DNA of 64,000 nt, taken from the NCBI GenBank assembly GCA_030697645.1, contig JAUYPI010000014.1, positions 12,136-76,135 of the forward strand, read 5' to 3'. Both the position numbers and the translations under genes were made by a program. This document shows, piece by piece, positions 23,743 through 44,399 of this stretch; within the stretch, counting starts at the first letter, position 1; the number at the start of each line of letters is the position of its first letter. The DNA comes from a bacterium (GTDB lineage: Bacteria > Patescibacteriota > Minisyncoccia > Phycocordibacterales > VMGT01). The notes beneath the pieces are model-generated. The model worked only from the letters and a program-made list of their open reading frames with translations. It did not search any database and was not told the DNA's origin.

Positions 23743-25112
23743 GCCGGTGAATTATTGATAGGGCAAAACCCTTGAAGTACACCCGCGAGCCGCTCGCTCG
23801 CGCGGCCGTCGAGGCGATACGCCTCCTCCCGCGCGAGCCGCTCACGCCCTTCGTGGCCTCGCGCAGGATCGGAGAGCGCCGTGCGCACGGCACCGCAAAG
23901 TTCACCCTCGCTTTTTGCGAACATAACCCCGCCGCTCTCAAGCACCGCGCTAAAGTGCTCGTAATCATAAAAGCGCCGCACGCTCTCCTGATACGGAAGC
24001 GCCGCCGCGTCCGTACCGTCAAATCCGACTAAAACAATCGGCTTATCAAAAAATGCGGCGTCCACGCAGATAGTTGAAGGTCCGGCGACGACGACGTCTG
24101 CTGCGGCAAGCGTTTGAGCAAGACGAACGTCGTCCGCGCGCGAGAGCTCCGTATTTTTCACATGGCCGAGCCCTGAGCCGCCGCGCTCGACAACCACGCG
24201 ACCGAACCGCCCGGGACGTACCCCCGCAACCTCGTCTGCGATCGGCAGGCGCACAAACAGAAGAGCGGTGTCTGGGAGACAAGAATCGAGCAGCGCGATA
24301 CAGTGCTGATCAATCGCGTGCCTCGCCGCAACATACCGGTCGCCAACCGGCGCAAAGAGAACAACGTGCGTCCCGGGATCAAACCCGAGTTCTCGAAGAA
24401 ACACCGCGCGGGTCGCTCCCGTGCTCACGTGCTCACGGTACCGCGCGTATCCGTCGTAGTGCGGAATGCCCACGACGCCGACGCGCTGCGGCGCAATGCC
24501 GTGGAGCACGGTTGCTTCACGAGCAATGATGTCGTTGTGGACAACGAGCCGATCCGGCACCACGCGGAGGAGTCCTTTGGCCGTCAGGTTGTCCCATGAG
24601 CGCACCATGCCGACGATGGGGATACTCAACCCACGGGCTGCGTGCATGAGTCGGACATCGTGCTCATTCTGCACGTCGGTCGAAAAAACAAGCGCGGGGC
24701 GAAACTCTCTCAAAAGTGCGTCGAACGGGAAGCGCGGCGTGAACATGCGGCTCAATGCCCGTACCAGAGCATGAGCTACCCTGTTCGACAACACCCGCGA
24801 GAGCCACGCGCCGCGCCCGCTAAGTTCAGCGGCTCGCTTGATTGAAAGCGCCCTCGTCCGGAGCGCCGAGAGGACAAGCGTACGCAGTATGAGATCTCGC
24901 CTCGTGAGCCGTGCGGAAATACCTCGGATAAGCACGCGCTCGCCCGCATACTCCCGCTCGAAATAAGGCTTCTTTCGCTCCGGACAGAGGATGACAACGG
25001 TGCTCTCCGGCCTCGCAACAAGCACCTGATCAATCACAGTCGTCCCGAGAATGTTGCGTGAAATGAGCGGGTGGAAGCTTGAAATGAAAATCGATGGCAT
25101 ACGAAAAAACAC
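23739..25112 (-). CDS. TagF/KpsS-like polymer-forming transferase, paralog C
   Basis: SFHPLISRNIL N-terminus shared with 54047-55402; VLFAPVGD, FVRLPIAD and VVAGPSTICVDAAFFDKPIVLV motifs. Confidence 0.55.
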   Translation of the reverse strand: MFFRMPSIFISSFHPLISRNILGTTVIDQVLVARPESTVVILCPERKKPYFEREYAGERVLIRGISARLTRRDLILRTLVLSALRTRALSIKRAAELSGRGAWLSRVLSNRVAHALVRALSRMFTPRFPFDALLREFRPALVFSTDVQNEHDVRLMHAARGLSIPIVGMVRSWDNLTAKGLLRVVPDRLVVHNDIIAREATVLHGIAPQRVGVVGIPHYDGYARYREHVSTGATRAVFLRELGFDPGTHVVLFAPVGDRYVAARHAIDQHCIALLDSCLPDTALLFVRLPIADEVAGVRPGRFGRVVVERGGSGLGHVKNTELSRADDVRLAQTLAAADVVVAGPSTICVDAAFFDKPIVLVGFDGTDAAALPYQESVRRFYDYEHFSAVLESGGVMFAKSEGELCGAVRTALSDPARGHEGRERLAREEAYRLDGRASERLAGVLQGFCPINNSPA

Positions 25113-25259: not shown

Positions 25260-27104
25260 CTACGTACCGCACTGGCTCACAAGCAGCGCCCTCGATTTCG
25301 GACCGATAAGACCGTACCCGGTAGTTGCGGGACTGCCGCTCGAGACAACCCCGCTCGCGCCCTGCCACATGCGCACTGCCGCTTGAGTCAATTTCCCGAA
25401 ATACCCAGTCGCCAAACCGGCTTCAAGTTGCCCTTTTTTAATGAGAAATTTTTGTAGTTTCGAGACTTCACCCCCGGTTCCCGCATCTCGCATTCCAAGT
25501 CCAAGAGTTCTGGTGAGTTTACAATCTATCGTCGCCGTGGCAGTCGTGGCCAGTGGCAATACGGGTACAGGAACAGAAGTAGAGGAAGGAGAAGGAGGAG
25601 CGACCGCAGCGGGGATTGGGGACTGCTCTAGCTCGGGCTGGGGCGGCAAAACAGCACCTCCAGCGCTGTTAAAGTAGGACGGGATGCCAGTCTTCATGTA
25701 CTCGGCAAGGGCAGCAATAGCGGCGTCGGAATAATCGGCACGCACTAAGGATTTTACGTCATCATCAAACGCCGGACTGCCCTTGTATGGGAAGAATAAA
25801 TCGGCGCGCTCTAATCCGCTTACCTGCGTCATGGCACTCACGATCATGTCCGTGTCTTCGGCAGTACTTCCTTGAGGAGACGGGTTTCGTGTCTTCAAAA
25901 TCCTCAAGAGCTCCACCATACCGTCTGCGCCGACTTTTTTATAGAGATTCGAGATGATTACTCCCGAGTGCGTATATGAATCACGGATTGGGAAATCGAT
26001 ACCTCCTTCAAAACTATAATCGAAATTTTTATCGTATTTTGCCTTGAGTTCTTTGGCGCTGAACAGGTGAGTGCGGTTCGTTATATCCAGAAGCGTTTGT
26101 TCCTGTATATCTGCAAAAATGTACGGGCGTGCCTGGGTCTCCATAAAAACCGCGATACCCTCCTTAAACCATTTCGCGGAATACGCGGCCCCGTAGAAAA
26201 GCCGCTGATTCCTTTCGACAAGATGGGCCATCTCGTGCACGAGTGTTGTTTTAATCTCACTGAGCGTCTCGGTATCAAGATAATCCTTGTTGTAGAGGAC
26301 GACGTTCGGTGGAGCAGCCAGTGCCGTTGCCTCATACCCGACATCTATATCGGAAAGATCAGCCGCATAGATGAGTATATTCTCTGGCGGTTTGATGCCG
26401 AGGGACTTCACAAAAAGGTCGTCGACAAAAGACATCTGCGACAGGGCAGTTTCAAGCTTCGCTACCGACGCGACCGACCCTGCTACCGTATACCGCCCCA
26501 CCGTCTTAACCGCATTCCCCGTCCCTGCGTTCGGCGTTGCGAATGCCACCAGTACGGGGGCGACATAGGAGGAGTTTCCAGCAGGGTACGCCACAGAAAG
26601 CGTCTGGCCCTGCGCCTCATACGACGGCCAGGCAGATAGCACCTTCCAGTCTGCTGGATAATCAATCGTTATCGCGGGGGAGAGAAAGTAGGAGCCCCGC
26701 GCGACCCAAAATTCATACACCGCGACAGGCTGTGTCAGAACGGTGGAAATGTCGTAGTCGATGTAAAGATTGTGAACACCCGAGTTAGTTTTGTAACGGT
26801 TCGGCACGATAATGTAGCCGCTCTCGAAGCCAGTTTCGAGATTTCCCATTTCATCAGCCGCTCCCCGGAAGAGGTATGTCATGGCACCAGTCGCCCCGAA
26901 GTTATCAACATTATCAAAAGCGCTCGCGCTCACATACTTCGTGTCCAGAGGAAACGTCCAATGACCGCTCGCTTTAAAATCGGGCGTGATCGTAATATGC
27001 ACCTTTTGGTTGACCGCCTCGGCAGAGTTACTCAGGAAAAAGAGAGCAAAAAAGGCTCCACACAGGACGGCGTATTGGCAGATGGATGGTTTACGAAAAA
27101 ACAT
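25260..27104 (-). CDS. Secreted zinc metalloprotease-like protein with C-terminal peptidoglycan-binding (PG_binding_1) domain
   Basis: N-terminal signal peptide, HEMAH zincin motif, Pro-rich linker, C-terminal GEVSKLQKFL ... GYFGKLTQAAV PG-binding repeat. Confidence 0.6.
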   Translation of the reverse strand: MFFRKPSICQYAVLCGAFFALFFLSNSAEAVNQKVHITITPDFKASGHWTFPLDTKYVSASAFDNVDNFGATGAMTYLFRGAADEMGNLETGFESGYIIVPNRYKTNSGVHNLYIDYDISTVLTQPVAVYEFWVARGSYFLSPAITIDYPADWKVLSAWPSYEAQGQTLSVAYPAGNSSYVAPVLVAFATPNAGTGNAVKTVGRYTVAGSVASVAKLETALSQMSFVDDLFVKSLGIKPPENILIYAADLSDIDVGYEATALAAPPNVVLYNKDYLDTETLSEIKTTLVHEMAHLVERNQRLFYGAAYSAKWFKEGIAVFMETQARPYIFADIQEQTLLDITNRTHLFSAKELKAKYDKNFDYSFEGGIDFPIRDSYTHSGVIISNLYKKVGADGMVELLRILKTRNPSPQGSTAEDTDMIVSAMTQVSGLERADLFFPYKGSPAFDDDVKSLVRADYSDAAIAALAEYMKTGIPSYFNSAGGAVLPPQPELEQSPIPAAVAPPSPSSTSVPVPVLPLATTATATIDCKLTRTLGLGMRDAGTGGEVSKLQKFLIKKGQLEAGLATGYFGKLTQAAVRMWQGASGVVSSGSPATTGYGLIGPKSRALLVSQCGT

Positions 27105-27108
27105 GGAT

Positions 27109-27729
27109 TCAATAATTGGTGAATTTCACCGACTGGAGTATGCGGACCATGAGATCGCGCAGAACGGGATTTTTGTCCGTATAGACCGTATGTACCTGAT
27201 GTACCTTACCCTTCCGAAATATGAAGTCATCGAAGACAATAAGACGGTTCTTTTTCGTAGAAACGTAGCTCCACTCGACGGAGTATATTTTATTACCATC
27301 TCGCTCTTTCATGCTCGCCGCTGTTACCCGAACGCCCACCAACGATCGCCGTTGCTGAGCGATATAGAAATTGACCAGGTCTATGGGGTCGACCTTAGCG
27401 ACAACTGCCTCGGGCACAGAAAAAATAGCGGCGGGCGTAGAGCTTAACACATAGGCTTTTTTTACAATCCGTACCCCTTGGTCGGTGCGATCTCGTAGAG
27501 AAATCAAGCCCACCGAGTTGTTACTCAGGGTAGTAAAGGTGCGCTCGGAGACGCTCCAGTATTTCGGTACAAGCACGCGCACGCCACTGTCTTTGCTCGC
27601 ATATTCGGTGTCATACTGATATTCGGTCTCATACTGAAAGACGGTCTCTGCAGATACAAACAGCGACACTGCATGTGCCGCTACAGAGATGACAACAAAC
27701 GCGAGTATGAAACGGCCAAAAGAGTTCAT
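27109..27729 (-). CDS. Secreted hypothetical protein
   Basis: Signal peptide (FILAFVVISVAAHA) and a short internal duplication ETVFQYETEYQYDTEY. Confidence 0.5.
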   Translation of the reverse strand: MNSFGRFILAFVVISVAAHAVSLFVSAETVFQYETEYQYDTEYASKDSGVRVLVPKYWSVSERTFTTLSNNSVGLISLRDRTDQGVRIVKKAYVLSSTPAAIFSVPEAVVAKVDPIDLVNFYIAQQRRSLVGVRVTAASMKERDGNKIYSVEWSYVSTKKNRLIVFDDFIFRKGKVHQVHTVYTDKNPVLRDLMVRILQSVKFTNY

Positions 27730-27821
27730 GGTATTCTGTGATCCTGAAAATGCCAGAGGCCCTGTGGGAGATACCGTACCTCTGAGGCGTCTTGCACACT
27801 TTTTTTCTATACACAGTTTAA

Positions 27822-28697
27822 TTAACCCAGTCGCGACTTCTCCTCAATAGCCTTTCGGGCGACAGGAAGTTCGCCTATAAAGAGCTGGGGGGAAATGCCT
27901 TTGTCCGTCAAAACTATTTTCGCGTTGTCTTGCAAAGCACGCTGGGTAACTTCAAGTTGCTTGAGAAGTTGCGCGTTCCCGGTAAATGACTTGTTTATGA
28001 GATCAAAGGCCTGCGCCTGTCCTTCCGCCTCGAGGATGGCGGCCTGCTTCTTTCCTTCAGCTTCCTTGATCATTGCTCGCCGGTTGCCGTCGGCTTCTGT
28101 CTCTTTCGCTGTGGCAAAGTCGATGGCCGAGCGCTTACTGTTCTCTGCCTTGATAACCATGTTCATGGTTTCCTGAACGTCTCTCGGCGGAATAATTTCC
28201 TTCATTTCAACACGCACTACTTCAACGCCCCATTTACCTGTTTCTTTTCGTAAGATGTCGGCAAGCTCGGAATTCAGCTTCGAACGCTGCGAATTAACGT
28301 CCTTGAACGCCATGCCGCCAATGACGTTTCGTGCAGTCGTCTGCGCCAGTGAGACAATCTGGCTTCTGAAATCACTCACTTCATACAAAGATTGCTTTAC
28401 ATTGTCCTCATCGCGCTTGACCTGGAAGTAGATCATCATATCAACCTTCGCATTCAGATTGTCTTCGGTGATGATCTCGTGCGAAGCGATGTCCACCATG
28501 TTTTCGGTGGTGTCGACTTGCACCATGCGGTCGATAACCGGGATAATCCAGTGGAACCCGGGGTTGCAGAATTTTTTGTATTTACCCAAACGCTCAACAA
28601 CCGCTCTGCGTGTCGGCCTGACAATGCGTATCCCGGCGAGTATAAACACCGCAAGGATTGTGAGCCCCAGGAATTGGAAAGGTGATGCAGAGGTCAT
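27822..28697 (-). CDS. SPFH/band-7 (stomatin-prohibitin-like) membrane protein
   Basis: N-terminal TM helix followed by an SPFH domain and a coiled-coil AEGKKQAAILEAEGQAQA tail. Confidence 0.8.
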   Translation of the reverse strand: MTSASPFQFLGLTILAVFILAGIRIVRPTRRAVVERLGKYKKFCNPGFHWIIPVIDRMVQVDTTENMVDIASHEIITEDNLNAKVDMMIYFQVKRDEDNVKQSLYEVSDFRSQIVSLAQTTARNVIGGMAFKDVNSQRSKLNSELADILRKETGKWGVEVVRVEMKEIIPPRDVQETMNMVIKAENSKRSAIDFATAKETEADGNRRAMIKEAEGKKQAAILEAEGQAQAFDLINKSFTGNAQLLKQLEVTQRALQDNAKIVLTDKGISPQLFIGELPVARKAIEEKSRLG

Positions 28698-28749
28698 AGA
28701 TCATTATTTGTCGTCAAAAGTATAGCTCAGTATAACTCAATTCTTGTCG

Positions 28750-29277
28750 CTAGAGAAGCGAGGTTAGAAACACCCCTTCTCCTCCGTAAGGAACAGTAAA
28801 CCCATCGTCAAAGTTACGCTGTCGCACAGCGAGTCCATCACTCACGTGCCTACACGCTTCTTCCTTGCTCATAAACTCTGCTTCAGATTCTCGCAAGTAA
28901 GCAGGGGTCTGCCACGAATGTTCCAAGGTCGCTTTCTTCGATGGTTCGAGCCCGAAAAAAGCGCACTCTTGTCCAGCCGGTATCAACGCCAACAATTTCT
29001 TAACCATTGTAACGTCGTCGTCTTGATACGCGTACGCTTTCATCTCTGAAACCGAATAGAATCCATACGTGCTGTTCCATGTGTCGAGTATCGGGTATGT
29101 CACCACCATCTTAAAGGGGTGTGCCGTGAACGCTTTCTTGTATCCGTCTAAAAAGTGAACCCTGCAAACCTTCTGTCTCGTCGCTTTTCCTCCGAGCACC
29201 GGAGTAACGAGAACGTCTTTTGCGTTTGGATTTCTACAAATTTCACATTCTGGTTTTTTAAAAAAAGAAAGGGCCAT
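28750..29277 (-). CDS. Hypothetical protein with N-terminal CxxC ... CxxH zinc-ribbon-like motif
   Basis: ORF with protein-like composition and no recognisable family. Confidence 0.4.
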   Translation of the reverse strand: MALSFFKKPECEICRNPNAKDVLVTPVLGGKATRQKVCRVHFLDGYKKAFTAHPFKMVVTYPILDTWNSTYGFYSVSEMKAYAYQDDDVTMVKKLLALIPAGQECAFFGLEPSKKATLEHSWQTPAYLRESEAEFMSKEEACRHVSDGLAVRQRNFDDGFTVPYGGEGVFLTSLL

Positions 29278-29539
29278 ACAATAGAAAATGGCGGATATAC
29301 GGGGACCGCGCGACGGAGGGTTCCGTCACGCGTATTGTACCGCATACAACCTGAAGTCTCCGCGAGACGATACGAATGCGGGACACGGAATATACTAAAC
29401 ATCTCGCAAAAGCTGGCCGTTTGTGCTAGCGTAGGCTACCGTGGGGCAGAGCCCTGGTGATACTCCGTGGTCTTTTTTTTATACCTTATAGAGACTAGAG
29501 ACCGATTTTTATCAAAAGTCGTGCTACCCCGGGTGCGCC

Positions 29540-32020
29540 ATGTCCATAATGACTCTAAAAAATAAATGGGTCGGCGCTAGTATCGGCGCGGTACTACTCG
29601 CAGGGGGCACGATGCTCCTCATAAAATTCGTCTTCCCCGAGCCGGTACGTCGCCCCATCGTCAATGAAGCGCGCGGCCTCTATGTCGCGCTCGAGCGCCT
29701 TACCGAAATACCTCAGAGTCTCACCGCGCGCCTCAAGCCGCTGCCTGTCCCCGCCTATCGCCTGGTCATAGACCCCGAGCACGAGCGCGAGCTCGACGAC
29801 TACTTCAGGATCCAGGAGGGCAACCTCGATCGCGAAAAAATCTACGTGCCTGCCGTCTTTTACGACCCCGACGGCCGCCGCTACGACGTGCGCGTCACCT
29901 ATCGGGGCGACGGCGGACAACATTTTCGTTTTCCACAAAAATCGTGGCGCATTGTTTTCCCGGACGAAAGTCTCTTCATGGGTAAAAAAGCGATCACCCT
30001 GATCTACCCTGAAGAGAGAGAGTTCCTCGTCGAGGCGACGAACTTCCACCGCGCAAAGAAACTCGGCCTCGCGGCGCCGGAAACCGGATTTGTCTACCTC
30101 TTCGTGAACCGCCATGAAGCTGGCCTCTACTATGAATTCGAACACTGGTCCGAAGAGTTACTCGAGCGCAACCGTCTTAAAACCGACGGAAATCTCTACG
30201 GTGAGCAGGGGCTCGGGAGCGAAGACCTCTACCGATCGACGAGCCACTGGCAGCAATACGTCGCAAACGCGCCGGGCGCGGAACATAAGGAAGATCTCGC
30301 GCTGCTCATCGCCATCCTCAACCACCCGTCGGATGAATACTTCAATCGCAACATAGACGACATACTCGATCTCGAAACGTTCTACCGATGGAATGTCCAC
30401 GCGCTCCTCTCCGGGAGCGAGCACCAAGACGCGATCCACAATGCCCGCCTCTACTTCGACCCGACGCTTGGAAAATTCAAATATATCCCCTGGGACGTCA
30501 ACATCGGCGATCTTGAGGCGCCGATAGAGTCGAGGGGTATCGACCCGAAAGACTACAATCCACTCGTGCTCCGCATCCTCGCCCACCAGCCGTTCCTCGA
30601 GAAGCGAAACAGGCTCCTGCGAGAGTACCTCGCCGACTCGGAAACGGTCGCGGACGATTTTCGGTACTACGATGAACTCTACCAAACGCTTCGTCCGGCG
30701 TTCTACCGCGATACTCTGAAAAATTACTCGAACCGCTTTTTTAGAGAGGAGGTGGCCCGCTACCGCGACATCCTCTCGCGCAACATCGCCTACCTCCAAG
30801 AGCACTACCTCGAGGCCGAACCCCCTCCCGCGGCTCCGGCAGAGCGAGAACGCCCGCTCGCCGAGCCAGACGGAGAGTATGCGCCTCCGGTGCCGACCGG
30901 AGATGCATTCACGTATTTTCACGACATCAGCCGTTCTCCGGAGGAATTCCTCGCCGCACACCCCAACTTCTCGAAAGATACCGCCGGAGAACTCCACCTC
31001 GGGCCCGGGAGCGTTGTACTCCGCGCCACGACGCTGGTGCCAGAAAACACACGCCTTCACATCGAGGCCGGAACCGATGTCTTCCTTGACGCTCATGCAT
31101 CTCTCGTGAGCTACAGTGCCATAGATGCCCGCGGCACAGCGGAGCGTCCGATACGCTTTCTACCGCTCAGCCCTACAGAGCCGTGGGGCACCCTTGCGAT
31201 CATCGACGCGCCGAACGAGAGCCGATTCGAGAACGTCTTCTTTCTCCATACTGCGAAACGCCCCGACCCCCCGCTCTCGCCGGATGAGCACCGCACGATC
31301 GCCGGACCTATTAACGGGATGCTGTTTCGCGGTATGGTCACGGTGCGCCACGCGGCGGTCTCGATCGCCGCAAGCACATTTGCGCACGCTGCGGGGGACG
31401 ATGCGCTCTCGGTCCAATACGGCAGCTTCGCAATAACCGATTCGCTGTTCCGAGATAATAGCGCGGATGCGTTTGACGCCGACTTTGCGAGCGGCACTAT
31501 CATGCGCACTGCCTTTCGCGACAGCGGCAACGACGGCGTTGACATTGACGGCACGAAGGCGCTCGTCGAGGACGTGGTCGTAACCCGCACGGGCGACAAA
31601 GGGTTTTCGCTCGGAGCAAGCACCGAGCTCGAGCTCAAGAACAGCGTTATCGATACGGCCGATATCGGCGTCGCGATCAAGGACGACAGCAGCGCGACAC
31701 TCACCCATGCTCTGATCGTTGGAGCGCGCATTGGGATCAATATCTATCACGATAATCCGATATTCCCGGCGGCAACCGCCACGGCGAAAGTCAGTGCCTC
31801 CGTAATCGCTCAAAGTACCGAGCGTACCATTTCTGTGCCACGCGACGCCCAGCTTGCCATGGACCGAAGCATCATTGAGGGCGGTTTCCCCGGCTCTGCC
31901 GAGGACGTCATAGACGTTACGCCGCGCTTTCGCAATGCGGCAGCTGGCGATTACCGCCTGCTTGATGCTCCAGGCGGAGAGACGATCGGGTTGAGGTATC
32001 TTCCGAGAGTACCGCGCTAA
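29540..32020 (+). CDS. Membrane-anchored CotH-family atypical kinase domain fused to a C-terminal right-handed beta-helix (pectate-lyase-like) domain
   Basis: N-terminal TM helix; CotH-like block (KSWRIVFP ... KKLGLAAPETGFVYLFVNRHEAGLYYEFEH); C-terminal Asn/Asp/Gly-rich beta-helix repeats. Confidence 0.65.
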   Translation: MSIMTLKNKWVGASIGAVLLAGGTMLLIKFVFPEPVRRPIVNEARGLYVALERLTEIPQSLTARLKPLPVPAYRLVIDPEHERELDDYFRIQEGNLDREKIYVPAVFYDPDGRRYDVRVTYRGDGGQHFRFPQKSWRIVFPDESLFMGKKAITLIYPEEREFLVEATNFHRAKKLGLAAPETGFVYLFVNRHEAGLYYEFEHWSEELLERNRLKTDGNLYGEQGLGSEDLYRSTSHWQQYVANAPGAEHKEDLALLIAILNHPSDEYFNRNIDDILDLETFYRWNVHALLSGSEHQDAIHNARLYFDPTLGKFKYIPWDVNIGDLEAPIESRGIDPKDYNPLVLRILAHQPFLEKRNRLLREYLADSETVADDFRYYDELYQTLRPAFYRDTLKNYSNRFFREEVARYRDILSRNIAYLQEHYLEAEPPPAAPAERERPLAEPDGEYAPPVPTGDAFTYFHDISRSPEEFLAAHPNFSKDTAGELHLGPGSVVLRATTLVPENTRLHIEAGTDVFLDAHASLVSYSAIDARGTAERPIRFLPLSPTEPWGTLAIIDAPNESRFENVFFLHTAKRPDPPLSPDEHRTIAGPINGMLFRGMVTVRHAAVSIAASTFAHAAGDDALSVQYGSFAITDSLFRDNSADAFDADFASGTIMRTAFRDSGNDGVDIDGTKALVEDVVVTRTGDKGFSLGASTELELKNSVIDTADIGVAIKDDSSATLTHALIVGARIGINIYHDNPIFPAATATAKVSASVIAQSTERTISVPRDAQLAMDRSIIEGGFPGSAEDVIDVTPRFRNAAAGDYRLLDAPGGETIGLRYLPRVPR

Positions 32021-32160
32021 ATTCCAAGCTCCAACCAACAATTTCCAAACAAAGCTCAAATTCCAATGCGCCAAATCTCAAACACGCCATTATCTGTGTT
32101 TGGAGCTTGGGGTTTGGATATTGTGATTTGTTTGGAGCTTGTTTCTTGGAATTTGAAAAT
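32019..32160. repeat. Palindromic intergenic repeat element, family 1, copy A (about 142 bp, imperfect inverted arms of about 65 bp)
   Basis: Left arm aaattccaagctccaaccaacaatttccaaacaaagctcaaattccaatgcgccaaatctcaaac is nearly identical to the copy at 44400; right arm ... gtttggagcttgtttcttggaatttg is its imperfect reverse complement. Confidence 0.85.
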
Positions 32161-32167
32161 TAATGCC

Positions 32168-32899
32168 ATGCACACCCAACGCTTCGAATGGAAATATCTG
32201 GTAACGCCGACTGAGGCCGACCATCTCATCGGCGCTCTTCTTGCACGCGGGATGCGATGGGATAAAGTCGTCGCAAGCTCTCCATCGCATCACTACCCGG
32301 TGACGAGCCTCTATTTTGATTCGCCCGCGTTTCTCTGCTACCACGACAAACGACACGGCTTATACCGACGGTTTAAGGTACGCCTGCGCGGCTATACGAA
32401 GACGCTCGGACAAAACGCGCCCCTGTACCTCGAGCTCAAGCGCAAAGACGGCGATATCGTCACGAAAGACCGGATCACGCTTGCGCGCGGGGCGATGGAG
32501 ATGGTGGCAGCGCGAAACATCCCGGGACTCACGGCTCCCGCGCGGAGAGTCGGAGAGGCCGAGGAGAGAAAGGTCGCCCTGCGGCTCACGACGCTTCTTG
32601 CTAATTTTGCGCTGAGGCCCCGTATTATGGTACGCTACGACCGCCAGCCGCTTATCGGCACAGAGGCAAACCACCTGCGCGTTACGTTCGATCGCGCGCT
32701 TGAGGCATATCCGTATGCTCTCGGCGAGACGTACGCCACCGCCCTTCCGCCGCGCCGCTCGGTCGTGATGGAGATCAAATACAACGGCGCGATGCCGGTC
32801 TGGCTCCATACGCTTATCGTGCACGAGGGTCTTCAACGAATAGCATTCTCAAAATACTGTATCGGCGTCACGACGCTTCGATCACGTTTACTTATCTAA
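32168..32899 (+). CDS. VTC-domain (polyphosphate polymerase-like) protein
   Basis: VTC motifs (FEWKYLV ... TSLYFDS ... YRRFKVRLRGY ... LELKRK); start assigned to the Met downstream of the repeat element. Confidence 0.65.
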   Translation: MHTQRFEWKYLVTPTEADHLIGALLARGMRWDKVVASSPSHHYPVTSLYFDSPAFLCYHDKRHGLYRRFKVRLRGYTKTLGQNAPLYLELKRKDGDIVTKDRITLARGAMEMVAARNIPGLTAPARRVGEAEERKVALRLTTLLANFALRPRIMVRYDRQPLIGTEANHLRVTFDRALEAYPYALGETYATALPPRRSVVMEIKYNGAMPVWLHTLIVHEGLQRIAFSKYCIGVTTLRSRLLI

Positions 32900-32901
32900 C
32901 T

Positions 32902-33564
32902 ATGTTCACCGATGTACCAGAAATTGCCGCAGCGCAAGTCACCGCGCTCGCCGCGCTCACCGCTATCGCATTCTCATTCGCGCTTGCGTTCGCGATTGCG
33001 TTTATCTACCGCAAAACGCATCGCGGTTTTTCCTACTCGCCCTCCTTCGTCTTTACCTTGATACTCGTCGCAATCCTCTCCGCGGTAGTCATGCTGGTCG
33101 TCGAGAACTCTCTCGCGCGCGCATTTGCCATCCTCGGCACATTCACCATCATACGCTATCGGACGGCTATCAAAGACACGCGCGACACGGCGTTCCTTCT
33201 TTGGGCCATTGTTACCGGCCTTGCGGTCGGCACGACGAACTACGCCCTCGCGCTCGTCGCAACCGGCCTCGTTGGCATCGTCGTTCTCGCGCTTTCCAAA
33301 TTCGACTTCGGTTCCCTCAATAAACCTGAAACGCTTCTCTACTTCACGACGAAAGCCGAGCCGGAAACGTACACGCCTCTGTTCGAACAGTATTGCACAG
33401 CGCACCACATGCTCTCCGTGCGCGCCTCGGGCGGTACGCGATCACTCACCTACTCTATAACCCCTCTCAACGAAAGGGAAGCACACGCGCTCGTGCGCGC
33501 GCTTCAGAACGCTCCGCAGACCGACAACATAGAGCTCGTCTCGACCAAGGAAGATATCGAATAG
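32902..33564 (+). CDS. DUF4956-family membrane protein
   Basis: Four TM helices plus a soluble C-terminal domain; the family is classically encoded next to VTC and CotH genes. Confidence 0.55.
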   Translation: MFTDVPEIAAAQVTALAALTAIAFSFALAFAIAFIYRKTHRGFSYSPSFVFTLILVAILSAVVMLVVENSLARAFAILGTFTIIRYRTAIKDTRDTAFLLWAIVTGLAVGTTNYALALVATGLVGIVVLALSKFDFGSLNKPETLLYFTTKAEPETYTPLFEQYCTAHHMLSVRASGGTRSLTYSITPLNEREAHALVRALQNAPQTDNIELVSTKEDIE

Positions 33565-33576: not shown

Positions 33577-34998
33577 TCACGACGCGCCGCGCCGCCCAAA
33601 CCCGAACGCCCGTCGCGCGGCCACACCATAGGGTCGCGCGGCGCGCACGCCTATACGCAAGGCCTCGCGCGCAAAGTCCGCGTCTTCCTTGCCGAAATGC
33701 GTAAGGTCGCGCACGTGCAGCGCAAACTCCGGTGCGGAGCGCTTGAGATAGAGCACGAGCACGGTCGCCTTAACAAGAAGCTGCAGCCAGCGCTCGAGCA
33801 CAAGACCCCAGAGGCCGAGGAGTGGGAGGAAGATCAGCGTGAGCGGCAACGCAACCGCGGTTTTGACGACGCGGTTGAAGAAAAGAAATCTCTGCCGCCG
33901 CATGGCGCGGAGAAAAAATACGGGCAGTGACCCGATCGCGGCAATGGGAGCGGTTCCGGCAAGCGCGTAAAAATACGGAAGTGCGACGACATATTTCGGA
34001 AAGAAGAGGCGAACCGCGAAAGGGAACACCGCGGCTCCCGCAAGCACGCCGAGGAAAGTGAACGCCACCTGATATTTCACCCCGCGGAGGAAGACACGCC
34101 GCGACCACCGAGAATCATAGACGCGCATGGGAAGCAAAGTGCCGAGCGTGCGCGTCGGCACAAAGTTCGTCACTACAGCGATAAGAGAGCGCGCTACCAC
34201 AAAGAGCGCCACGGCTTCTGTGCTCACAAAAATTTTAATCAGCCATGGCTCTACCTGCTCCGTCACATGGCCGAGTAACCCTTGAGCGCTCGCCCACTTC
34301 CCATACGCCTTAAACGTGCGCGGTAGGATCCAACGCCGCACCGCCTTGAGTCCTCGCCATGGCGTATACGCACGGATGGCGGACGGCACCATGGTGACGC
34401 CCATGCCGAGTGAGCCGACGACGAGAGACCAAAGCACCACGCGCACGTCAACTTTTGAGGCACTCACCACAAACGCGCCGAGGAAGAGGAGTTGCAGCGT
34501 CTTCTGCACGACGCGCCTGCGCGCGATGGCGGCAAATCTGAGGCGAAAGTTGAGGAGAGACGTACACAAACGCTGCAGTACGTCAACCGCCATAAGCAAG
34601 GCGAGAATTTTTCCGAAACGCGCAACCTCGGAGCCGTATTTTTGGATAAAGAGGTTCGAGCCGAAAAAAAAGAGCACCGCAAGCAGAAGTGTCGCGACAC
34701 ACCGCAAGCCATAAAACTCCAAAAAGGCACGTTTCGCCTCACGCTCCCTGCCTTCGCCGATAAAACGCGACACGTCGTTGTCTGCGAATGTCATCATGAG
34801 CGATGGAAGCCCGATCGCAAACCCAAATGCGGCAAGCAGCAGCTGGAACACGCCATACTCGTAAAGTGAGAGCGCCGAAAGAACGATCAGGGCGTTCAGT
34901 GCGCTCACGCCGCGCTCGACGAGCCCCCAACCGCCGAACTGGAGCTCACCAAGCACATAGTGACGCAAAAAAGACACGCGTGATTGTGCTGTTGCCAT
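33577..34998 (-). CDS. Polysaccharide flippase (Wzx / MOP-superfamily oligosaccharide exporter)
   Basis: 473 aa with about 12-14 TM helices and Wzx-like topology; sits inside a glycan locus. Confidence 0.65.
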   Translation of the reverse strand: MATAQSRVSFLRHYVLGELQFGGWGLVERGVSALNALIVLSALSLYEYGVFQLLLAAFGFAIGLPSLMMTFADNDVSRFIGEGREREAKRAFLEFYGLRCVATLLLAVLFFFGSNLFIQKYGSEVARFGKILALLMAVDVLQRLCTSLLNFRLRFAAIARRRVVQKTLQLLFLGAFVVSASKVDVRVVLWSLVVGSLGMGVTMVPSAIRAYTPWRGLKAVRRWILPRTFKAYGKWASAQGLLGHVTEQVEPWLIKIFVSTEAVALFVVARSLIAVVTNFVPTRTLGTLLPMRVYDSRWSRRVFLRGVKYQVAFTFLGVLAGAAVFPFAVRLFFPKYVVALPYFYALAGTAPIAAIGSLPVFFLRAMRRQRFLFFNRVVKTAVALPLTLIFLPLLGLWGLVLERWLQLLVKATVLVLYLKRSAPEFALHVRDLTHFGKEDADFAREALRIGVRAARPYGVAARRAFGFGRRGAS

Positions 34999-36926: not shown

Positions 36927-37385
36927 TCAACCACGAATTTTGATTATCACGAGCCGCGCGGTGGCGGAAGCAACGTGCTGATGCGGCACGCCGGGCGGGA
37001 TCCAGAGCCAGTCGCCGGGGCGCAGGGCGTACGTCGTGCCATCCTCAATCCGCTCGCCAACAAGCTCGTCTGGATTGGACGAGCCGTCCTCCCGTGCTCG
37101 TTTGGTGGCACCGATAAGCTCCCCGTTGACGAGGAACGTCACCTCGCCCGCAAGACACTGCCAGAGATCCCCCTCGCGGCGGTGTATCTCCGGCGCATTT
37201 TCGACGGCGCTGTCTTCAAGGATGCCGAATGGCATCTCGGTCACACCAGCCGGAAGCGGCAGCATCCGCCTCCCCTGCTGCGGCTTTTCTCGAAGCAGCT
37301 CCAAGAGAGCGCTCTGTGAAAAATATCGTGCCTCAATCATGAAATGGTGCACTTCATACAACCGCAAAAAACAGGCACGCGTCAC
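36927..37385 (-). CDS. Cupin-domain protein
   Basis: C-terminal cupin motifs (GDWLWIPPGVPHQH). Confidence 0.5.
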   Translation of the reverse strand: MTRACFLRLYEVHHFMIEARYFSQSALLELLREKPQQGRRMLPLPAGVTEMPFGILEDSAVENAPEIHRREGDLWQCLAGEVTFLVNGELIGATKRAREDGSSNPDELVGERIEDGTTYALRPGDWLWIPPGVPHQHVASATARLVIIKIRG

Positions 37386-38389
37386 TCGTGGCTACGCTGC
37401 GGCAGTCGCACGATGGCGCCTGTCTCGAGCGACTCGCGGGCGGCAAGCGCGACGTCGAGGGTGGCGACGGCCTCGGAGAGCGGCACCTGCGATTCTTCTT
37501 CTCCGCGGATGACTCTCAAAAAATGTACGACTTCGTCGAGGTACATCTGATTTTTATCAAACGGCTCATCGAGGCCGACCCGGCGCGGGGACGCTGCACT
37601 CGTGCGGGAAAAAATGCTAGCGCAATTTGAAAAGTAGTCCCACTCGATCTGTCCCCCCGTGCCAACGAGAGAGAAATCGCGCCGCGGAGGACGCGCGAGA
37701 TAGTCCAAATGCAGCGCGCCGATGCAGCCGGATTCAAACTCAAGGAGGATGTCGGCCACGTCTTCAACGTCAATATCTAAATTGCTTTTGTGCCCGCCGA
37801 GGCAGTAGACGCTCCTCACGGCGCCAAAAAGCCACAGGGCGTAATCAATCTCATGGCTCAAAGTGAGGATCACGCCGCCGCCGAGCTCTCTCAGAGCGGC
37901 ATAACTGCTGCGGTAATCTTCATTTGGGTGCCAATCCGGCAGAAACTGACCGACACTGATGCGGGCGGCAATCGGATCTCCGACCTCGCGCTCATCCACC
38001 GCTTTTTTAATGGCACGAAGCAGTGGATGAAACCGCAGGTGATAACCGACGTATACACAGCGCTTCTTTGCCTCGGCCGCAGCAAAGATTTCCTCGACAT
38101 GCTCGGCCGATGCGGCAAGCGGCTTCTCCACAAATACATGACCGCCCTCCGCGAGCGCCGCGAGCGTATCCCGCGCATGAAATACAGTCGGGTTGGTAAT
38201 AAAAACCGCGTCCGGCCTTACAGAAAAACCGTCTTCGAGCGAGCGGACGCGTCGAACGCCGCACTCGATCTCCGCGCTCGCCACCCTCTCGCTCGTGCGA
38301 TACGCCACGAAATCTCTATAGCCGAGCGCATAGAGATTGCGCACATGCCGCTCGCCGATAGACCCAAGACCGAGAAATAAAAATCGCAT
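37382..38389 (-). CDS. Gfo/Idh/MocA family oxidoreductase
   Basis: LGLGSIGERH Rossmann motif, VFVEKPLA motif. Confidence 0.75.
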   Translation of the reverse strand: MRFLFLGLGSIGERHVRNLYALGYRDFVAYRTSERVASAEIECGVRRVRSLEDGFSVRPDAVFITNPTVFHARDTLAALAEGGHVFVEKPLAASAEHVEEIFAAAEAKKRCVYVGYHLRFHPLLRAIKKAVDEREVGDPIAARISVGQFLPDWHPNEDYRSSYAALRELGGGVILTLSHEIDYALWLFGAVRSVYCLGGHKSNLDIDVEDVADILLEFESGCIGALHLDYLARPPRRDFSLVGTGGQIEWDYFSNCASIFSRTSAASPRRVGLDEPFDKNQMYLDEVVHFLRVIRGEEESQVPLSEAVATLDVALAARESLETGAIVRLPQRSHE

Positions 38390-38404: not shown

Positions 38405-38600
38405 TTAAGCAAGTGCGCACACCTTTTATTTTTGTGCATTGCGAGAGGTGTTTAGGAAATGGCGAGCCGAGTAGAAAAATGCAGCTGTCTGAGGCCGACC
38501 AGGAGGGAGGCCGAGTTCTGCATTTTTCGTAGACGAGGCGACACCATTTCCAGACACTTCAAGCACGAGCACAAAAATAAAAGGTGTAAGCACTAAAATT
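38405..38600. repeat. Structured palindromic element, family 2, copy 1 (about 195 bp)
   Basis: Perfect 20-bp outer inverted repeat (acaccttttatttttgtgc / gcacaaaaataaaaggtgt) around the conserved core gcgagaggtgtttaggaaa...gaaaaatgcag...ctgcatttttc shared with 59778-59949. Confidence 0.85.
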
Positions 38601-38644: not shown

Positions 38645-39469
38645 ATGAAAAAGACACGACGCGCCAGCCCCATAGATAAACTTTTTAGTCTCTCCGGAAA
38701 GACCGCGGTCATTACCGGCGGCTGTGGCATGCTTGGCATCGAGTATGCGACCATACTCGCTGAGGCGGGCGCTCGTGTGGTCCTCCTTGATATGCTGCCT
38801 CCCCGCACCGTGCGTGCTCGGCTCGAAACACTGCCCGCCTCCATTCGCACACGCGTCGACGGGCGCTCGATAGACATTACCGACGAATCGCGCGTCAAAA
38901 AAACATTCAAGGATATTCTCAATAAATACCAGACAGTAGACATACTCGTCAACAACGCCGCTCTCACCGATTTTTCAGACAACGCAGATCGGTGGGCGGC
39001 GTATGAAAATTTTTCGCTCCCGCTCTGGAGCAAAGAGCTTGAAGTCAGCCTCACGGGCTCGTTTCTTTGTACCCGGGCGGTCATGCCGCAGATGAAAAAA
39101 GCCCGCTCCGGAGTTATCGTGAACATCTCTTCGATATACGGGCTCGCTGCACCGGACAATCGCATCTACAAGGAAGGCGTGTATCGGTCGCTCGCCTACG
39201 CCACGGCAAAGTCCGGCATCATGAACTTTACGCGCTCACTTGCCTCCTACCTCTCACCCCACGGCATCCGAGTCAACACGCTCTCGCTCGGCGGCGTCTT
39301 TGCCGACCACGACGAGGCGTTTGTGACAGCCTATGCGGCGCGCACCATGCTCGGGAGAATGGCGAGAAAAGAAGAGTATCGCGGGCCGCTGCTTTTTCTC
39401 TGCTCCGACGCATCGGCGTATATGACCGGGAGCAACCTGGTCGTTGACGGCGGGTGGACGGCGTGGTGA
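38645..39469 (+). CDS. Short-chain dehydrogenase/reductase (SDR) family oxidoreductase
   Basis: TGGCGMLG cofactor motif, YxxxK (YATAKSG), NNAA motif. Confidence 0.8.
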   Translation: MKKTRRASPIDKLFSLSGKTAVITGGCGMLGIEYATILAEAGARVVLLDMLPPRTVRARLETLPASIRTRVDGRSIDITDESRVKKTFKDILNKYQTVDILVNNAALTDFSDNADRWAAYENFSLPLWSKELEVSLTGSFLCTRAVMPQMKKARSGVIVNISSIYGLAAPDNRIYKEGVYRSLAYATAKSGIMNFTRSLASYLSPHGIRVNTLSLGGVFADHDEAFVTAYAARTMLGRMARKEEYRGPLLFLCSDASAYMTGSNLVVDGGWTAW

Positions 39470-43127: not shown

Positions 43128-43184
43128 AACAAAAACTCAAAGTGTAAAATGCAAAGCGAAAAATAACAGTGCAAAAAGCAAAAC

Positions 43185-43325
43185 AAATTTCCAATTTCCA
43201 AAAAACCCGTCTCCAAACAAATCTCAAATTCCAATGCGTCAAATCTCAAACACGTACGTCGTGTTTGGAAATTGAAATTTGAATCATTTGTTTGAAGCTT
43301 GTTTTTTGGAATTTTGAATTTTGCT
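43185..43325. repeat. Palindromic intergenic repeat element, family 1, copy B
   Basis: ccaaacaaatctcaaattccaatgcgtcaaatctcaaacacgtacgtcgtgtttgga core. Its outer left arm is the reverse complement of the outer right arm of copy C. Confidence 0.85.
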
Positions 43326-43375
43326 GTGTTGTTTTGCAATTTTCGTTTTGCGATTTGCGCTTTATGTCATGTACG

Positions 43376-44392: not shown

Positions 44393-44399
44393 ATCGTAG

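Follow-up and report, generated by a model that had tools for sequence, protein, structure and literature searches.

A CotH–beta-helix, VTC and DUF4956 gene triad in a patescibacterial glycan island: a possible envelope polyphosphate module

Related systems

The gene triad described here, which encodes CotH-, VTC- and DUF4956-family proteins, is not new as a neighborhood: it has been published as a set of uncharacterized accessory genes of Gram-positive pel operons, represented in S. intermedius by SIR_1594, SIR_1593 and SIR_1592 (Whitfield et al. 2020; mBio 2025, PMC12345266). There, deletion of the CotH gene lowers Pel, deletion of the DUF4956 gene raises it and either deletion alters aggregation, whereas deletion of the VTC gene gives no phenotype; the mBio paper did not find the triad's synteny outside pel loci (PMC12345266). 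The literature that we searched gives neither an established function for the triad nor a biochemical result for any bacterial member.

Our locus lies in a 64-kb stretch of DNA (the window) from a Patescibacteria-like MAG, whereas the pel modules come from Bacillota or Actinomycetota. It has in common with them the three families and their order, a secreted or anchored CotH protein, a soluble VTC protein, a DUF4956 protein that joins an MgtC-like membrane domain to an ACT-like domain, and adjoining exopolysaccharide genes. It differs in having no pel genes anywhere in the window and no DUF4832 hydrolase gene, in the fusion of its CotH domain to a beta-helix rather than an FN3 domain, and in the His that fills the catalytic Asp column. 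A comparable arrangement is found in NELoc-2 of C. perfringens, a Bacillota pathogen, where VTC genes are each followed by a gene for a 222–226-aa cytoplasmic-membrane protein, with CotH and glycosyltransferase genes beside them, as at our locus; unlike in the window, two copies of the pair flank a resolvase gene. Judged by size and position, the NELoc-2 'tubulin/FtsZ-like' genes are putative DUF4956 genes.

The individual families also have described relatives. In yeast Vtc4, K200, R264, R266, K281, R361, K458, S457, Y359 and E426 bind triphosphate or Mn2+, mutation of each lowers polyphosphate (polyP), and the K458 position holds Ile or Leu in the inactive Vtc2/3 (bioRxiv 10.1101/2023.01.27.525886). 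The window VTC protein shares with Vtc4 a tunnel domain with these nine substrate or metal residues, K458 included, and a paired membrane component. It lacks an SPX domain, neither it nor its partner has the Vtc-type three-helix transmembrane (TM) domain, and that partner, unlike in yeast, is a separate and unrelated five-helix MgtC-like protein. For Bacillus CotH, ATP-dependent protein kinase activity is proven (PMC7821199). The Bacillus structures (5jd9/5jda) and the window CotH protein are alike in fold, Pfam family and metal-binding Asn and Asp, but the window protein is only ~20% identical, has His295 in the catalytic Asp column, carries an extracytoplasmic signal-anchor and an added 330-residue beta-helix, and has no CotB- or CotG-like Ser-rich substrate gene nearby. 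Among the relatives are enzymes, of the Fam20B and POMK type, that phosphorylate glycan sugars in an extracytoplasmic compartment. These secretory-pathway kinases offer a functional analogy only, and they draw on ATP brought into the Golgi or ER, unlike what we propose for the window CotH.

Architecture of the three proteins

The features of the locus are as follows.

29540–32020, plus strand: CotH-family protein fused to a right-handed beta-helix, 826 aa, N-terminal membrane anchor (Pfam, PDB search, AF2)
29570–29632, plus strand: N-terminal hydrophobic signal-anchor, residues ~11–31 (hydropathy, AF2 helix)
29873–30814, plus strand: CotH kinase-like domain, residues ~112–425 (alignment to 5jd9)
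30422–30496, plus strand: active-site segment, with catalytic loop EHQDAIHN (H295, D297, N301) and metal-binding WD (D319) (alignments)
30968–31960, plus strand: right-handed parallel beta-helix domain of carbohydrate-active type, residues ~477–807 (AF2, Foldseek, Pfam)
32018–32165, no strand assigned: intergenic palindromic repeat of a dispersed family, 148 nt, between the CotH and VTC genes (inverted arms, folding)
32168–32899, plus strand: stand-alone VTC-domain protein, 243 aa, candidate Vtc4-type polyphosphate polymerase (Pfam, profile search, alignment)
32902–33564, plus strand: DUF4956 membrane protein, 220 aa (Pfam, AF2)
32944–33300, plus strand: DUF4956 membrane domain, five helices (AF2: residues 15–39, 47–66, 71–87, 93–110 and 114–133)
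33331–33543, plus strand: DUF4956 C-terminal ACT-like (ferredoxin-fold) domain, residues ~144–214
33577–34998, minus strand: polytopic membrane protein with ~9–12 hydrophobic segments, the 'flippase' neighbor

A first-pass annotation had placed three plus-strand genes here, and all are present at its coordinates apart from the VTC start. Pfam supports each family assignment well above threshold: ORF1 matches CotH (E=2.2e-28, 100 bits, cut-off 23.8, residues 120–418) and Beta_helix (E=4.1e-7, 30.2 bits, cut-off 25.9, residues 606–739), with a NosD match under its own cut-off; ORF2 matches VTC (E=1.4e-34, 120 bits); and ORF3 matches DUF4956 (E=1.9e-13, 50.9 bits, cut-off 30.6). NCBIfam has no model for any of the three ORFs.

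The CotH protein matched B. cereus CotH 5jd9 both in sequence (phmmer against PDB, E=1e-15) and in its AF2 model (mean pLDDT 78.9; Foldseek E=2.8e-15, TM(target) 0.76). Its beta-helix is modeled as an unbroken ladder of short strands over residues 477–807, with pLDDT mostly >90, and Foldseek matched it to alginate epimerase AlgG (E=9e-5), PL6 alginate lyases, polygalacturonase and phage tailspikes. At the N terminus, hydropathy peaks at 2.06 at residue 15 within an AF2 helix spanning residues 2–31, so hydropathy, AF2 and Foldseek agree with the anchored, beta-helix-fused CotH protein first annotated. An N-terminal TM or signal segment is present in 50 of 61 distinct triad CotH ORFs; those without a clear anchor are mostly 5'-truncated or have a weaker cleavable signal peptide. 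The charge flanks of the window anchor are ambiguous, and family topology suggests that the bulk of the protein lies outside the cytoplasm.

Its active site departs from the Bacillus pattern at the catalytic Asp. His295 occupies that column (B. cereus D223, B. subtilis D228) in an hmmalign alignment and, independently, in one made with MAFFT L-INS-i; N301 aligns with Bc N228 and D319 with Bc D246, and N190, G195, Y197, E201, N301 and D319 are conserved. Across triad CotH domains the catalytic column is His in 33 of 58 (and in 24 of the 25 beta-helix fusions), the metal-binding Asn is kept in 55 of 58 and the metal-binding Asp in 54 of 58. AF2 does not fix the loop geometry, as residues 296–299 have pLDDT <50. 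By alignment, the window protein is a member of a beta-helix-fused subclass with a conserved His for the Bacillus catalytic Asp. Loss of the conserved kinase lysine and aspartates had been named beforehand as grounds for rejecting the first-pass reading. The loss is partial: His fills the column of the catalytic Asp, and metal-binding Asn301 and Asp319 are kept.

The VTC protein has no TM segment and no SPX domain. A single-sequence search of PDB returned nothing, and its likeness to the Vtc4 catalytic domain (3g3q, E=3.9e-9) is detectable with a profile only. The basic tunnel residues, flagged at first pass as a point to check, are all present: K9, R72, R74, K91 and Y157 align with Vtc4 K200, R264, R266, K281 and Y359, and R159, E202, S228 and K229 with R361, E426, S457 and K458. 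Across 86 distinct bacterial VTCs all nine show little or no variation, and Lys occupies the K458 position in 85 of them, the remaining one being an alignment gap. The start first assigned, 32066, gives way to the ATG at 32168 as the most likely one, because Pfam aligns the long ORF only from residue 39 onward and orthologues of 59–84% identity are called at 243 aa.

The DUF4956 model (mean pLDDT 88.1) combines a five-helix membrane domain, where four TM segments had been annotated, with a C-terminal beta-alpha-beta-beta-alpha-beta fold that matches ACT domains. On this model, the protein has the architecture of MgtC. Even so, it differs from MgtC/SapB/YhiD in its sub-threshold match to Pfam MgtC (E=0.0015, 19.3 against 31.4 bits), its near-constant adjacency to VTC and its own invariant motif, R-x-R-T-x-x-K-D-T-R-D. 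No solved structure matched the membrane part, and no pore is visible in the monomer model. Across a 46-sequence alignment the invariant positions are Y36, A74, G79, R85, R87, K91, D95, G106, A108 and G110, with little variation at G42, Y45, S46, S48, R73, T88, D92 and T93; the topology would put the conserved basic and hydroxyl residues at the cytoplasmic face.

Gene linkage and possible functions

Among 80 distinct loci from Patescibacteria, Bacillota, Chloroflexota, Planctomycetota, Bacteroidota, Verrucomicrobiota and Hydrogenedentota, 76 have the VTC and DUF4956 genes side by side, in either order. The DUF4956 start codon of the window lies 3 nt past the VTC stop codon, leaving 2 nt between them, and in other genomes the two genes often overlap; no fusion of the two was found among the 120 VTC and 270 DUF4956 proteins listed. 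A CotH gene is adjacent in 43 of the 80 loci. In diderm lineages export-type genes take the place of CotH beside the pair: an HlyD-family membrane-fusion gene stands directly before or after it in 13 loci, and a TolC-like OEP gene adjoins it in six further loci with HlyD beside it. Three operons (L047, L045 and L049) consist of VTC, DUF4956 and HlyD alone, with no ABC, RND or other recognizable transporter gene adjoining, and in Bacteroidota such an operon lies beside a complete RND system. Around 20 loci, many on short contigs, have neither CotH nor HlyD nearby. The commonest immediate neighbors are GT4 (9/126) and polysaccharide-deacetylase (8/126) genes, and other Patescibacteria loci carry the triad within glycan gene clusters, as the window does. 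The recurrence of this neighborhood, already suggested at first pass, thus extends widely across phyla.

The explanation that we favor, which we regard as quite possible while short of probable, is that the three genes form one envelope-spanning module in which polyP is made inside the cell and used outside it. The soluble VTC protein, as a Vtc4-type triphosphate-tunnel polymerase, would build polyP from ATP in the cytoplasm. DUF4956, which linkage and architecture suggest is a dedicated membrane partner of VTC, has a cytoplasmic ACT-like domain and an Arg/Lys/Ser/Thr/Tyr cluster predicted at its cytoplasmic face; as an oligomer, it could pass the nascent chain across the membrane, in the role of the non-homologous Vtc1/3/4 transmembrane pore of yeast. 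In the least certain step, the anchored extracytoplasmic CotH–beta-helix protein would bind a surface glycan by its beta-helix, and its kinase-like domain would attach phosphate or polyphosphate to that glycan or to a protein associated with it. With no ATP available outside the cell, the donor would be exported polyP, and the conserved His may reflect this different donor chemistry.

Several observations favor such a module: the full Vtc4 residue set, including K229 at K458; the tight VTC–DUF4956 pairing; the precedent of yeast VTC, which couples synthesis with translocation; and, in diderms, the HlyD- and TolC-like genes, since membrane-fusion proteins are known only from serving inner-membrane exporters as adaptors. 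The operon itself, with one enzyme in the cytoplasm, a second outside it and a membrane protein between, has the usual layout of trans-envelope modification; the beta-helix resembles those of polysaccharide epimerases, lyases and hydrolases, in keeping with the glycan clusters; and in S. intermedius deletion of CotH or DUF4956 alters Pel level and aggregation (PMC12345266). The first-pass proposal of phosphorylation or poly-phosphorylation of a surface polymer matches this explanation and is strengthened by the diderm HlyD/TolC-type genes and the extracytoplasmic CotH protein, but 'kinase' in the strict Bacillus sense is unproven because His replaces the catalytic Asp.

Other observations weigh against it. 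A strictly linear pathway does not predict the differing S. intermedius deletion phenotypes, and DUF4956, with no pore in its monomer model, resembles MgtC, which, as far as it is cited in PMC12345266, is a regulator (ATP synthase, PhoR) and not a channel. The absence of fusions among the proteins listed, the ~20 loci with neither CotH nor HlyD and the Bacteroidota RND system, which could be the true partner of HlyD there, count in the same direction. The Asp-to-His change, in a loop of which AF2 is unsure, could equally mean a catalytically dead CotH, and we know of no kinase of the CotH superfamily that uses polyP.

Those deletion phenotypes are better accommodated if the triad serves two loosely coupled functions, which is close to the position of the S. 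intermedius Pel authors (PMC12345266) and which we consider rather unlikely here. VTC would make cytoplasmic polyP, DUF4956 would be an MgtC-like regulator of phosphate and ATP homeostasis, and CotH would be an ATP-dependent Ser/Thr kinase that regulates or modifies glycan-export proteins, the genes being linked only through tuning of exopolysaccharide output. Cytoplasmic polyP is normal bacterial physiology, Bacillus CotH is an ATP-dependent protein kinase, and the MgtC architecture and weak Pfam match agree. Against this, triad CotH proteins are almost always extracytoplasmic, with no known source of ATP there, and the catalytic Asp is missing from the window subclass; both the HlyD/TolC-type genes of diderm operons and the near-constant VTC–DUF4956 adjacency go unexplained.

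The His substitution, together with the poorly modeled loop, raises the alternative that the CotH–beta-helix protein is non-catalytic or at least no kinase, and serves at the surface as an anchor that binds glycans, as an adhesin or, through its beta-helix, as a glycan lyase or epimerase. Its degenerate kinase fold would then be retained for binding, possibly of polyP, and VTC–DUF4956 alone would do the chemistry. The likeness of the beta-helix to active polysaccharide enzymes, the large minority of VTC–DUF4956 loci without CotH and the Mucorales CotH proteins, which are described as invasins, would all suit it. We think it improbable, because the metal-binding residues, other core residues and the replacing His itself are conserved, which argues for a maintained active site rather than decay.

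More doubtful still is that VTC is another triphosphate-tunnel enzyme (a tripolyphosphatase, polyphosphatase or nucleotide-processing enzyme) whose product the DUF4956 ACT-like domain senses. ACT domains are small-ligand sensors, and the TTM/CYTH superfamily catalyzes diverse reactions on triphosphate substrates (PMC4641920); however, the best matches are to Vtc4 itself and to no other TTM family, and the polymerase-discriminating Lys is near-universal. The orientation of the block might suggest that three unrelated genes had landed side by side by chance, opposite in strand to the rest of the glycan island. This has a negligible chance of being right: it is contradicted by the recurrence of these three families, in an unchanged order, in relatives as distant as 31% identity and in other phyla.

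Surroundings and the intergenic palindrome

The window is a nonulosonic-acid and teichoic-like glycan island, and the triad block is transcribed against the surrounding genes. The block was described as the sole one on the plus strand within the first 38 kb, which is essentially correct: any other plus-strand ORF of 200 aa or more in that span overlaps a longer minus-strand gene with domain matches, the exception being an ORF pair, 5028–5819 (plus) and 5040–5684 (minus), with a domain match on neither strand. The 'flippase' label of the adjoining gene lacks support as a family assignment, as no Pfam match appeared even at E≤1.

The palindromic repeat between the CotH and VTC genes was correctly noticed at first pass; with the VTC start at 32168, it is wholly intergenic. 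Folding gives a single long hairpin (−52.2 kcal/mol, z=−7.2) that none of 200 shuffled sequences equaled; the repeat has no Rfam match and no terminator-like T tract, and two further copies lie in the window at 43183–43320 and 44399–44560. In the orthologous loci L004 and L007 the CotH–VTC gap contains palindromes of another sequence, and at most the repeat would modulate the relative expression of the operon's two halves.

A glycan island surrounding the triad

Three plus-strand ORFs stand in succession within a long run of minus-strand genes. Their Pfam matches bear out the CotH, VTC and DUF4956 labels that a first-pass annotation had given them, whereas NCBIfam holds no model matching any of the three proteins.

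Genes of the triad
29540-32020, plus strand: CotH-beta-helix protein, 826 aa; Pfam CotH E=2.2e-28 and Beta_helix E=4.1e-7
32066/32168-32899, plus strand: VTC protein, 243 aa from the ATG at 32168; Pfam VTC E=1.4e-34
32902-33564, plus strand: DUF4956 protein, 220 aa; Pfam DUF4956 E=1.9e-13, MgtC sub-threshold

The entire 64-kb window is a surface-glycan island, as seen in a Pfam scan of about 65 ORFs (nearly all of those of at least 200 aa, minus shadows of longer opposite-strand genes). Two NeuB paralogues, three CMP-sugar-type cytidylyltransferases, a NeuC-like epimerase and a PseB-like dehydratase (7054-8070, 44568-45644, 11893-13561, 40519-41286 and 41967-44473) suggest that a single island holds more than one nonulosonic-acid pathway. 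Four or five TagF-like CDP-glycerol glycerophosphotransferases and a glycerophosphodiester phosphodiesterase (14370-15740, 22351-25112 and 54047-56236) indicate a teichoic-acid-like polyol-phosphate polymer and hence a phosphate-rich surface near the putative polyphosphate (polyP) module. The island also holds GT2 enzymes, methyltransferases, two polysaccharide deacetylases, a YfhO-like protein, AsnB and Band7 genes, and a block at 46345-51271 encoding an AMP-binding ligase, an Fe-alcohol dehydrogenase, a LuxE acyl-protein synthetase and a LuxC acyl-CoA reductase; this block suggests fatty aldehyde or alcohol formation, or acyl modification of a surface polymer. The gene convergent with the triad (33577-34998) had been called a flippase; its product is polytopic, and Pfam offers no family for it, even at E<=1.

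Active sites and folds of the three proteins

Conservation was read from 80 loci, obtained by scanning one genome per GTDB species with a VTC profile and then searched with iterated HMMs derived from the window proteins. A VTC (PF09359) profile of five sequences matched the catalytic domain of Vtc4 in the PDB (3g3q_A, E=3.9e-9) over residues 5-237; the single sequence gave no match there with phmmer. The window and Vtc4 residues pair as K9-K200, R72-R264, R74-R266, K91-K281, Y157-Y359, R159-R361, E202-E426, S228-S457 and K229-K458, so that the basic tunnel residues on which the first-pass annotation had staked its VTC assignment (K9, R72, R74, K91, R159 and K229) are all kept. By cryo-EM of the yeast VTC complex, these nine Vtc4 residues are ligands of triphosphate and Mn2+, mutation of each lowers polyP, and K458 is the single position that differs in the inactive Vtc2 and Vtc3 (bioRxiv 10.1101/2023.01.27.525886). 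Among 86 distinct bacterial VTCs from the 80 loci, all nine are invariant, alignment gaps aside, except Ser228, whose column holds 76 Ser and 9 Ala; K229, within an 'FSKYC' motif, is Lys in 85 and a gap in one. Because all nine residues are present, the sequence supports a putative Vtc4-type polyP polymerase. Eukaryotic VTC combines an SPX domain with a Vtc-type transmembrane pore, whereas the window protein is a VTC domain alone, with no SPX and no transmembrane segment, and has DUF4956 as its partner. The 120 VTC homologues listed are likewise all 223-306 aa long with PF09359 as their sole Pfam domain. Textbooks name PPK1 and PPK2 as the polyP enzymes of bacteria.

The kinase-like domain of the first protein is securely placed in the CotH family: PF08757 scores 100.1 bits against a cut-off of 23.8 over 321 of 322 profile positions, the domain aligns to Bacillus cereus CotH at E=1e-15, and its AF2 model matches 5jd9 in Foldseek (E=2.8e-15, TM(target) 0.76). 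We took the catalytic residues from PMC7821199 and the 5jd9 alignment; B. subtilis CotH D228Q and D251A are both inactive (PMC7821199). The expectation of conserved kinase residues stood for the metal-binding pair, with Asn301 and Asp319 corresponding to B. cereus N228 and D246 (Asp319 being B. subtilis D251), but failed for the catalytic Asp: its column (B. subtilis D228, B. cereus D223) is His295 in the window, by both hmmalign and MAFFT L-INS-i. Of 58 distinct CotH domains from triad loci, 33 have His at this position, 21 have Asp and 4 have another residue; the metal-binding Asn and Asp columns are kept in 55 and 54, respectively. The Asp-type proteins come from Chloroflexota, Bacillota and others, and the His-type mostly from Patescibacteria. 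Beta-helix fusions are His-type in 24 of 25 cases, and no Asp-type protein carries a beta-helix (58 domains, surveyed loci L002-L090). The window protein is thus a distinct, conserved active-site variant of the CotH kinase family rather than a textbook CotH kinase. A nearby Asp297, two residues past His295 in the catalytic loop (30422-30442), is not conserved within the subclass, and the AF2 model, with pLDDT <50 at residues 296-299, is silent on whether H295 or D297 is oriented into the active site.

The C-terminal part of the same protein matches Beta_helix (PF13229; 30.2 bits against a cut-off of 25.9), and the AF2 model forms a strand ladder from 477 to 807. Foldseek matches of these C-terminal 330 residues include AlgG, PL6 lyases, polygalacturonases and tailspikes, a modelled likeness that points to a polysaccharide as the probable ligand. 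A hydrophobic anchor is present at the N terminus, as it is in 50 of 61 distinct triad CotH ORFs; truncation or a cleavable signal peptide accounts for most of the exceptions.

The third protein belongs to DUF4956 (PF16316; 50.9 bits against a cut-off of 30.6) and falls below the MgtC (PF02308) threshold (19.3 bits against 31.4), with which it shares only architecture and C-terminal fold. Its AF2 model, from a 46-sequence alignment (pLDDT 88), has helices at 15-39, 47-66, 71-87, 93-110 and 114-133, followed by a C-terminal beta-alpha-beta-beta-alpha-beta domain. Invariant or near-invariant residues in that alignment cluster in the first loop (Y36, G42, Y45, S46 and S48) and near helices 3-4 (R73, R85, R87, T88, K91, D92, T93 and D95). 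With the ACT-like domain placed in the cytoplasm, these conserved basic and hydroxyl residues would lie at the cytoplasmic face. The family is large, with 5,728 cluster representatives (50% identity) at E<=1e-10 among 1.84 billion. The matches listed are stand-alone proteins of about 225 aa plus some shorter fragments, and no VTC-DUF4956 or VTC-CotH fusion occurs among the homologues listed.

Linkage across phyla and a candidate polyphosphate route

Of the 80 distinct loci, 76 have VTC and DUF4956 side by side, in both gene orders, and the remaining four are truncated contigs or ORF-calling artefacts; CotH adjoins them in 43 loci and is present somewhere in 48. The earlier description of the triad as a recurrent neighbourhood is thus upheld at these frequencies. 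Outside their own clade, the nearest relatives of all three window proteins are encoded in Patescibacteria MAGs at 35-50% identity, which points to a Patescibacteria-like host. Window relatives at 83%, 65% and 31% identity keep the CotH-beta-helix, VTC, DUF4956 order while their glycan contexts differ. In one Patescibacteria locus of the survey (L023), the triad is co-directional within a Wzx-type cluster, ordered GT4, epimerase, GT4, triad, deacetylase, GT2, GtrA-methyltransferase and flippase. The commonest among 126 immediate neighbours are GT1/GT4 glycosyltransferases (9), polysaccharide deacetylases (8) and HlyD proteins (8). Several loci from Patescibacteria have a gene for an MsbA-like ABC exporter (ABC_membrane plus ABC_tran) right after DUF4956 (L012:9043-10830 and L042:8398-10254).

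The module has been published, although it is uncharacterised: the triad is described as accessory genes beside pelDEADAFG in streptococci, clostridia and bifidobacteria, where the listing comprises cotH, a polyphosphate polymerase, DUF4956 and often DUF4832 (bioRxiv 10.1101/768473 / PMC7112168). The contiguous order in the window is the order of that accessory module, and the gene set of Clostridium perfringens NELoc-2 is similar. The pel accessory module adjoins pelD, pelE, pelA-DA, pelF and pelG, whereas the window triad adjoins TagF-like, NeuB, AsnB and Band7 genes. We rejected a hidden pel locus: none of the roughly 65 ORFs across the window has a Pel-family Pfam match, and the Patescibacteria L023 cluster is Wzx-type, not PelDEFG. 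The authors of a Streptococcus intermedius study did not find triad synteny outside pel loci (bioRxiv 10.1101/2024.04.20.589940; PMC12345266), a statement that the window and the survey loci contradict. What is new here is the beta-helix fusion, the His-type active site and the setting, a glycan island outside any pel locus, in a Patescibacteria-like genome.

In 13 loci, a HlyD-family membrane-fusion gene abuts VTC-DUF4956, often overlapping it, in Planctomycetota, Verrucomicrobiota (Limisphaerales), Hydrogenedentota, Balneolales/Bacteroidetes, Spirochaetales or genomes labelled only 'bacterium'. Six further loci (the L066 group, a rumen clade) hold HlyD, a TolC-like OEP, VTC and DUF4956, in that order.

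HlyD-linked VTC-DUF4956 operons in diderm phyla
L044-L057 and L066-L078; for example L047:6959-9581, L049:2716-5320 and L066:3718-8462

At L047, L045 and L049, the unit is VTC-DUF4956-HlyD only, with unrelated flanks (citrate synthase, alanyl-tRNA synthetase) and no adjoining ABC, RND or other recognisable transporter gene; a caveat on HlyD as a partner is that the Bacteroidota loci have a complete RND system next door. We found no description of the association between HlyD and the pair in the literature searched. Membrane-fusion proteins are adaptors of inner-membrane exporters, and the HlyD pattern is the strongest argument that DUF4956 moves something across the membrane, most simply the product of VTC.

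From the observed architecture and linkage we infer a chemistry and a transport step. VTC would synthesise polyP in the cytoplasm, and a DUF4956 assembly would transfer it out for extracytoplasmic use. Where an outer membrane is lacking, the CotH-beta-helix protein would be the one to consume the polymer, and its conserved His may serve an altered chemistry; in diderm envelopes, a HlyD/TolC route would carry the polymer further. A kinase-fold enzyme outside the cytoplasm has no obvious ATP supply, so exported polyP would solve the donor problem. This model as a whole is the most economical, although we give it a little short of an even chance; its export half is somewhat more probable, and the polyP-using CotH step is doubtful. 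The boldest form, which we consider rather unlikely, is that the triad carries out polyP-driven extracytoplasmic phosphorylation, with DUF4956 as the first bacterial polyP translocase (extended by HlyD/TolC in diderms) and the Patescibacteria His-type CotH-beta-helix proteins as a new kinase-fold class that would use exported polyP instead of ATP, possibly via phospho-His, for phosphorylation or polyphosphorylation of surface glycans. As a translocase, DUF4956 would be a functional, non-homologous analogue of the yeast VTC pore.

An unlikely but serious alternative is that VTC and DUF4956 form a cytoplasmic polyP or phosphate-homeostasis pair, next to an independent, ATP-dependent secreted kinase. 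The main evidence against the export model speaks for it: in S. intermedius, deletion of DUF4956 raises Pel and lowers aggregation, deletion of cotH lowers both, and deletion of VTC has no measurable effect (bioRxiv 10.1101/2024.04.20.589940; PMC12345266), so that the phenotypes differ between genes. The known role of MgtC, moreover, is regulatory and not transport; the HlyD linkage weighs on the other side. That the CotH-beta-helix protein is non-catalytic or glycan-cleaving seems improbable. The His-type domain could be catalytically dead, a third point against the export model, and the beta-helix resembles lyases; the conserved His and metal-binding columns favour an active enzyme. A non-polymerase TTM reaction for VTC is quite improbable given the Vtc4 match and the Lys at K229. 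We found no functional study of a bacterial VTC, DUF4956 or triad CotH member in the literature searched. Chance adjacency of the three genes has a negligible probability in light of the survey counts.

The window is one ordinary instance. What counts is the pattern across phyla, which replaces a loose 'phosphate-related' label with a model that experiments can test; the family is an attractive experimental target. VTC-type polymerases are common in bacteria, with DUF4956 as their obligate partner, and secreted or anchored CotH-type kinases pose the question of a phosphate donor outside the cell. If polyP export and surface use were true, they would constitute a new bacterial polyP pathway with a new membrane translocase family, and would provide a route to phosphorylate capsules, teichoic-like polymers and matrix polysaccharides such as Pel, itself a factor in streptococcal virulence. 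The polyP-driven reading could likewise explain kinase chemistry outside the bacterial cell and, for Patescibacteria, whose way of life relies on surface contact with a host cell, would hint at a conserved surface-modification system.

Repeats and base composition

In the longest ORF the VTC Pfam match begins only at residue 39, and the orthologues are annotated as 243-aa proteins, so the start is most likely the ATG at 32168. This leaves a 147-nt gap after CotH that is occupied by a palindromic element, which the first-pass annotation had placed between these genes and which folds as a single long hairpin (-52.2 kcal/mol, z=-7.2).

Palindrome family copies (140-150 nt, A/T-rich)
32018-32165: in the CotH-VTC gap
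43183-43320: one of two copies bracketing the PseB-like gene (43376-44473, minus strand)
44399-44560: the other bracketing copy

The family has periodic CCAAA/TTTGG motifs and forms long hairpins of -39 to -52 kcal/mol (z -4.4 to -7.2). With three copies in the window, the palindrome is a dispersed repeat, and the copies look like REP/MITE-type intergenic elements. At gathering thresholds, Rfam has zero matches in the window, which means that no curated RNA family covers the palindromes, and the terminator scan returned nothing at 32018-32165. Orthologous loci (L004 and L007) have palindromes in the same gap that differ in sequence from that of the window; these unrelated palindromes, and the dispersed nature of the window element, led us to reject a conserved riboswitch-like VTC leader.

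Across the window, promoter and terminator scans found no more sites than in shuffled sequence and thus give no evidence on operon boundaries, and a tRNA scan found none. Overlapping ORFs at 5028-5819 (plus strand) and 5040-5684 (minus strand) lie in a gap between minus-strand genes; Pfam matches neither, and codon-position GC at 5028-5819 singles out neither strand as coding. The G+C content, 0.58-0.61 in the surroundings, dips twice: to 0.44 at 16-18 kb (16001-18000), where deacetylase and GT2-methyltransferase genes lie, and to about 0.50 at 26-30 kb (26001-30000), a stretch with peptidase-MA/PG-binding, Band7 and two unknown genes. These dips may reflect mosaic acquisition; the triad itself has the high-GC composition.

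A second repeat family (38412-38594 and 59777-59950) has 26-nt inverted arms, 92-100% complementary and spaced by 122-131 nt, and a 79-nt direct repeat of 73% identity. Each copy adjoins a short-chain dehydrogenase gene (38645-39469 and 59957-60745), and GFO/IDH/MocA oxidoreductase genes lie nearby (37382-38389 and 61410-62444); repeats and dehydrogenases together look like a cassette that was duplicated along with its structured leader.
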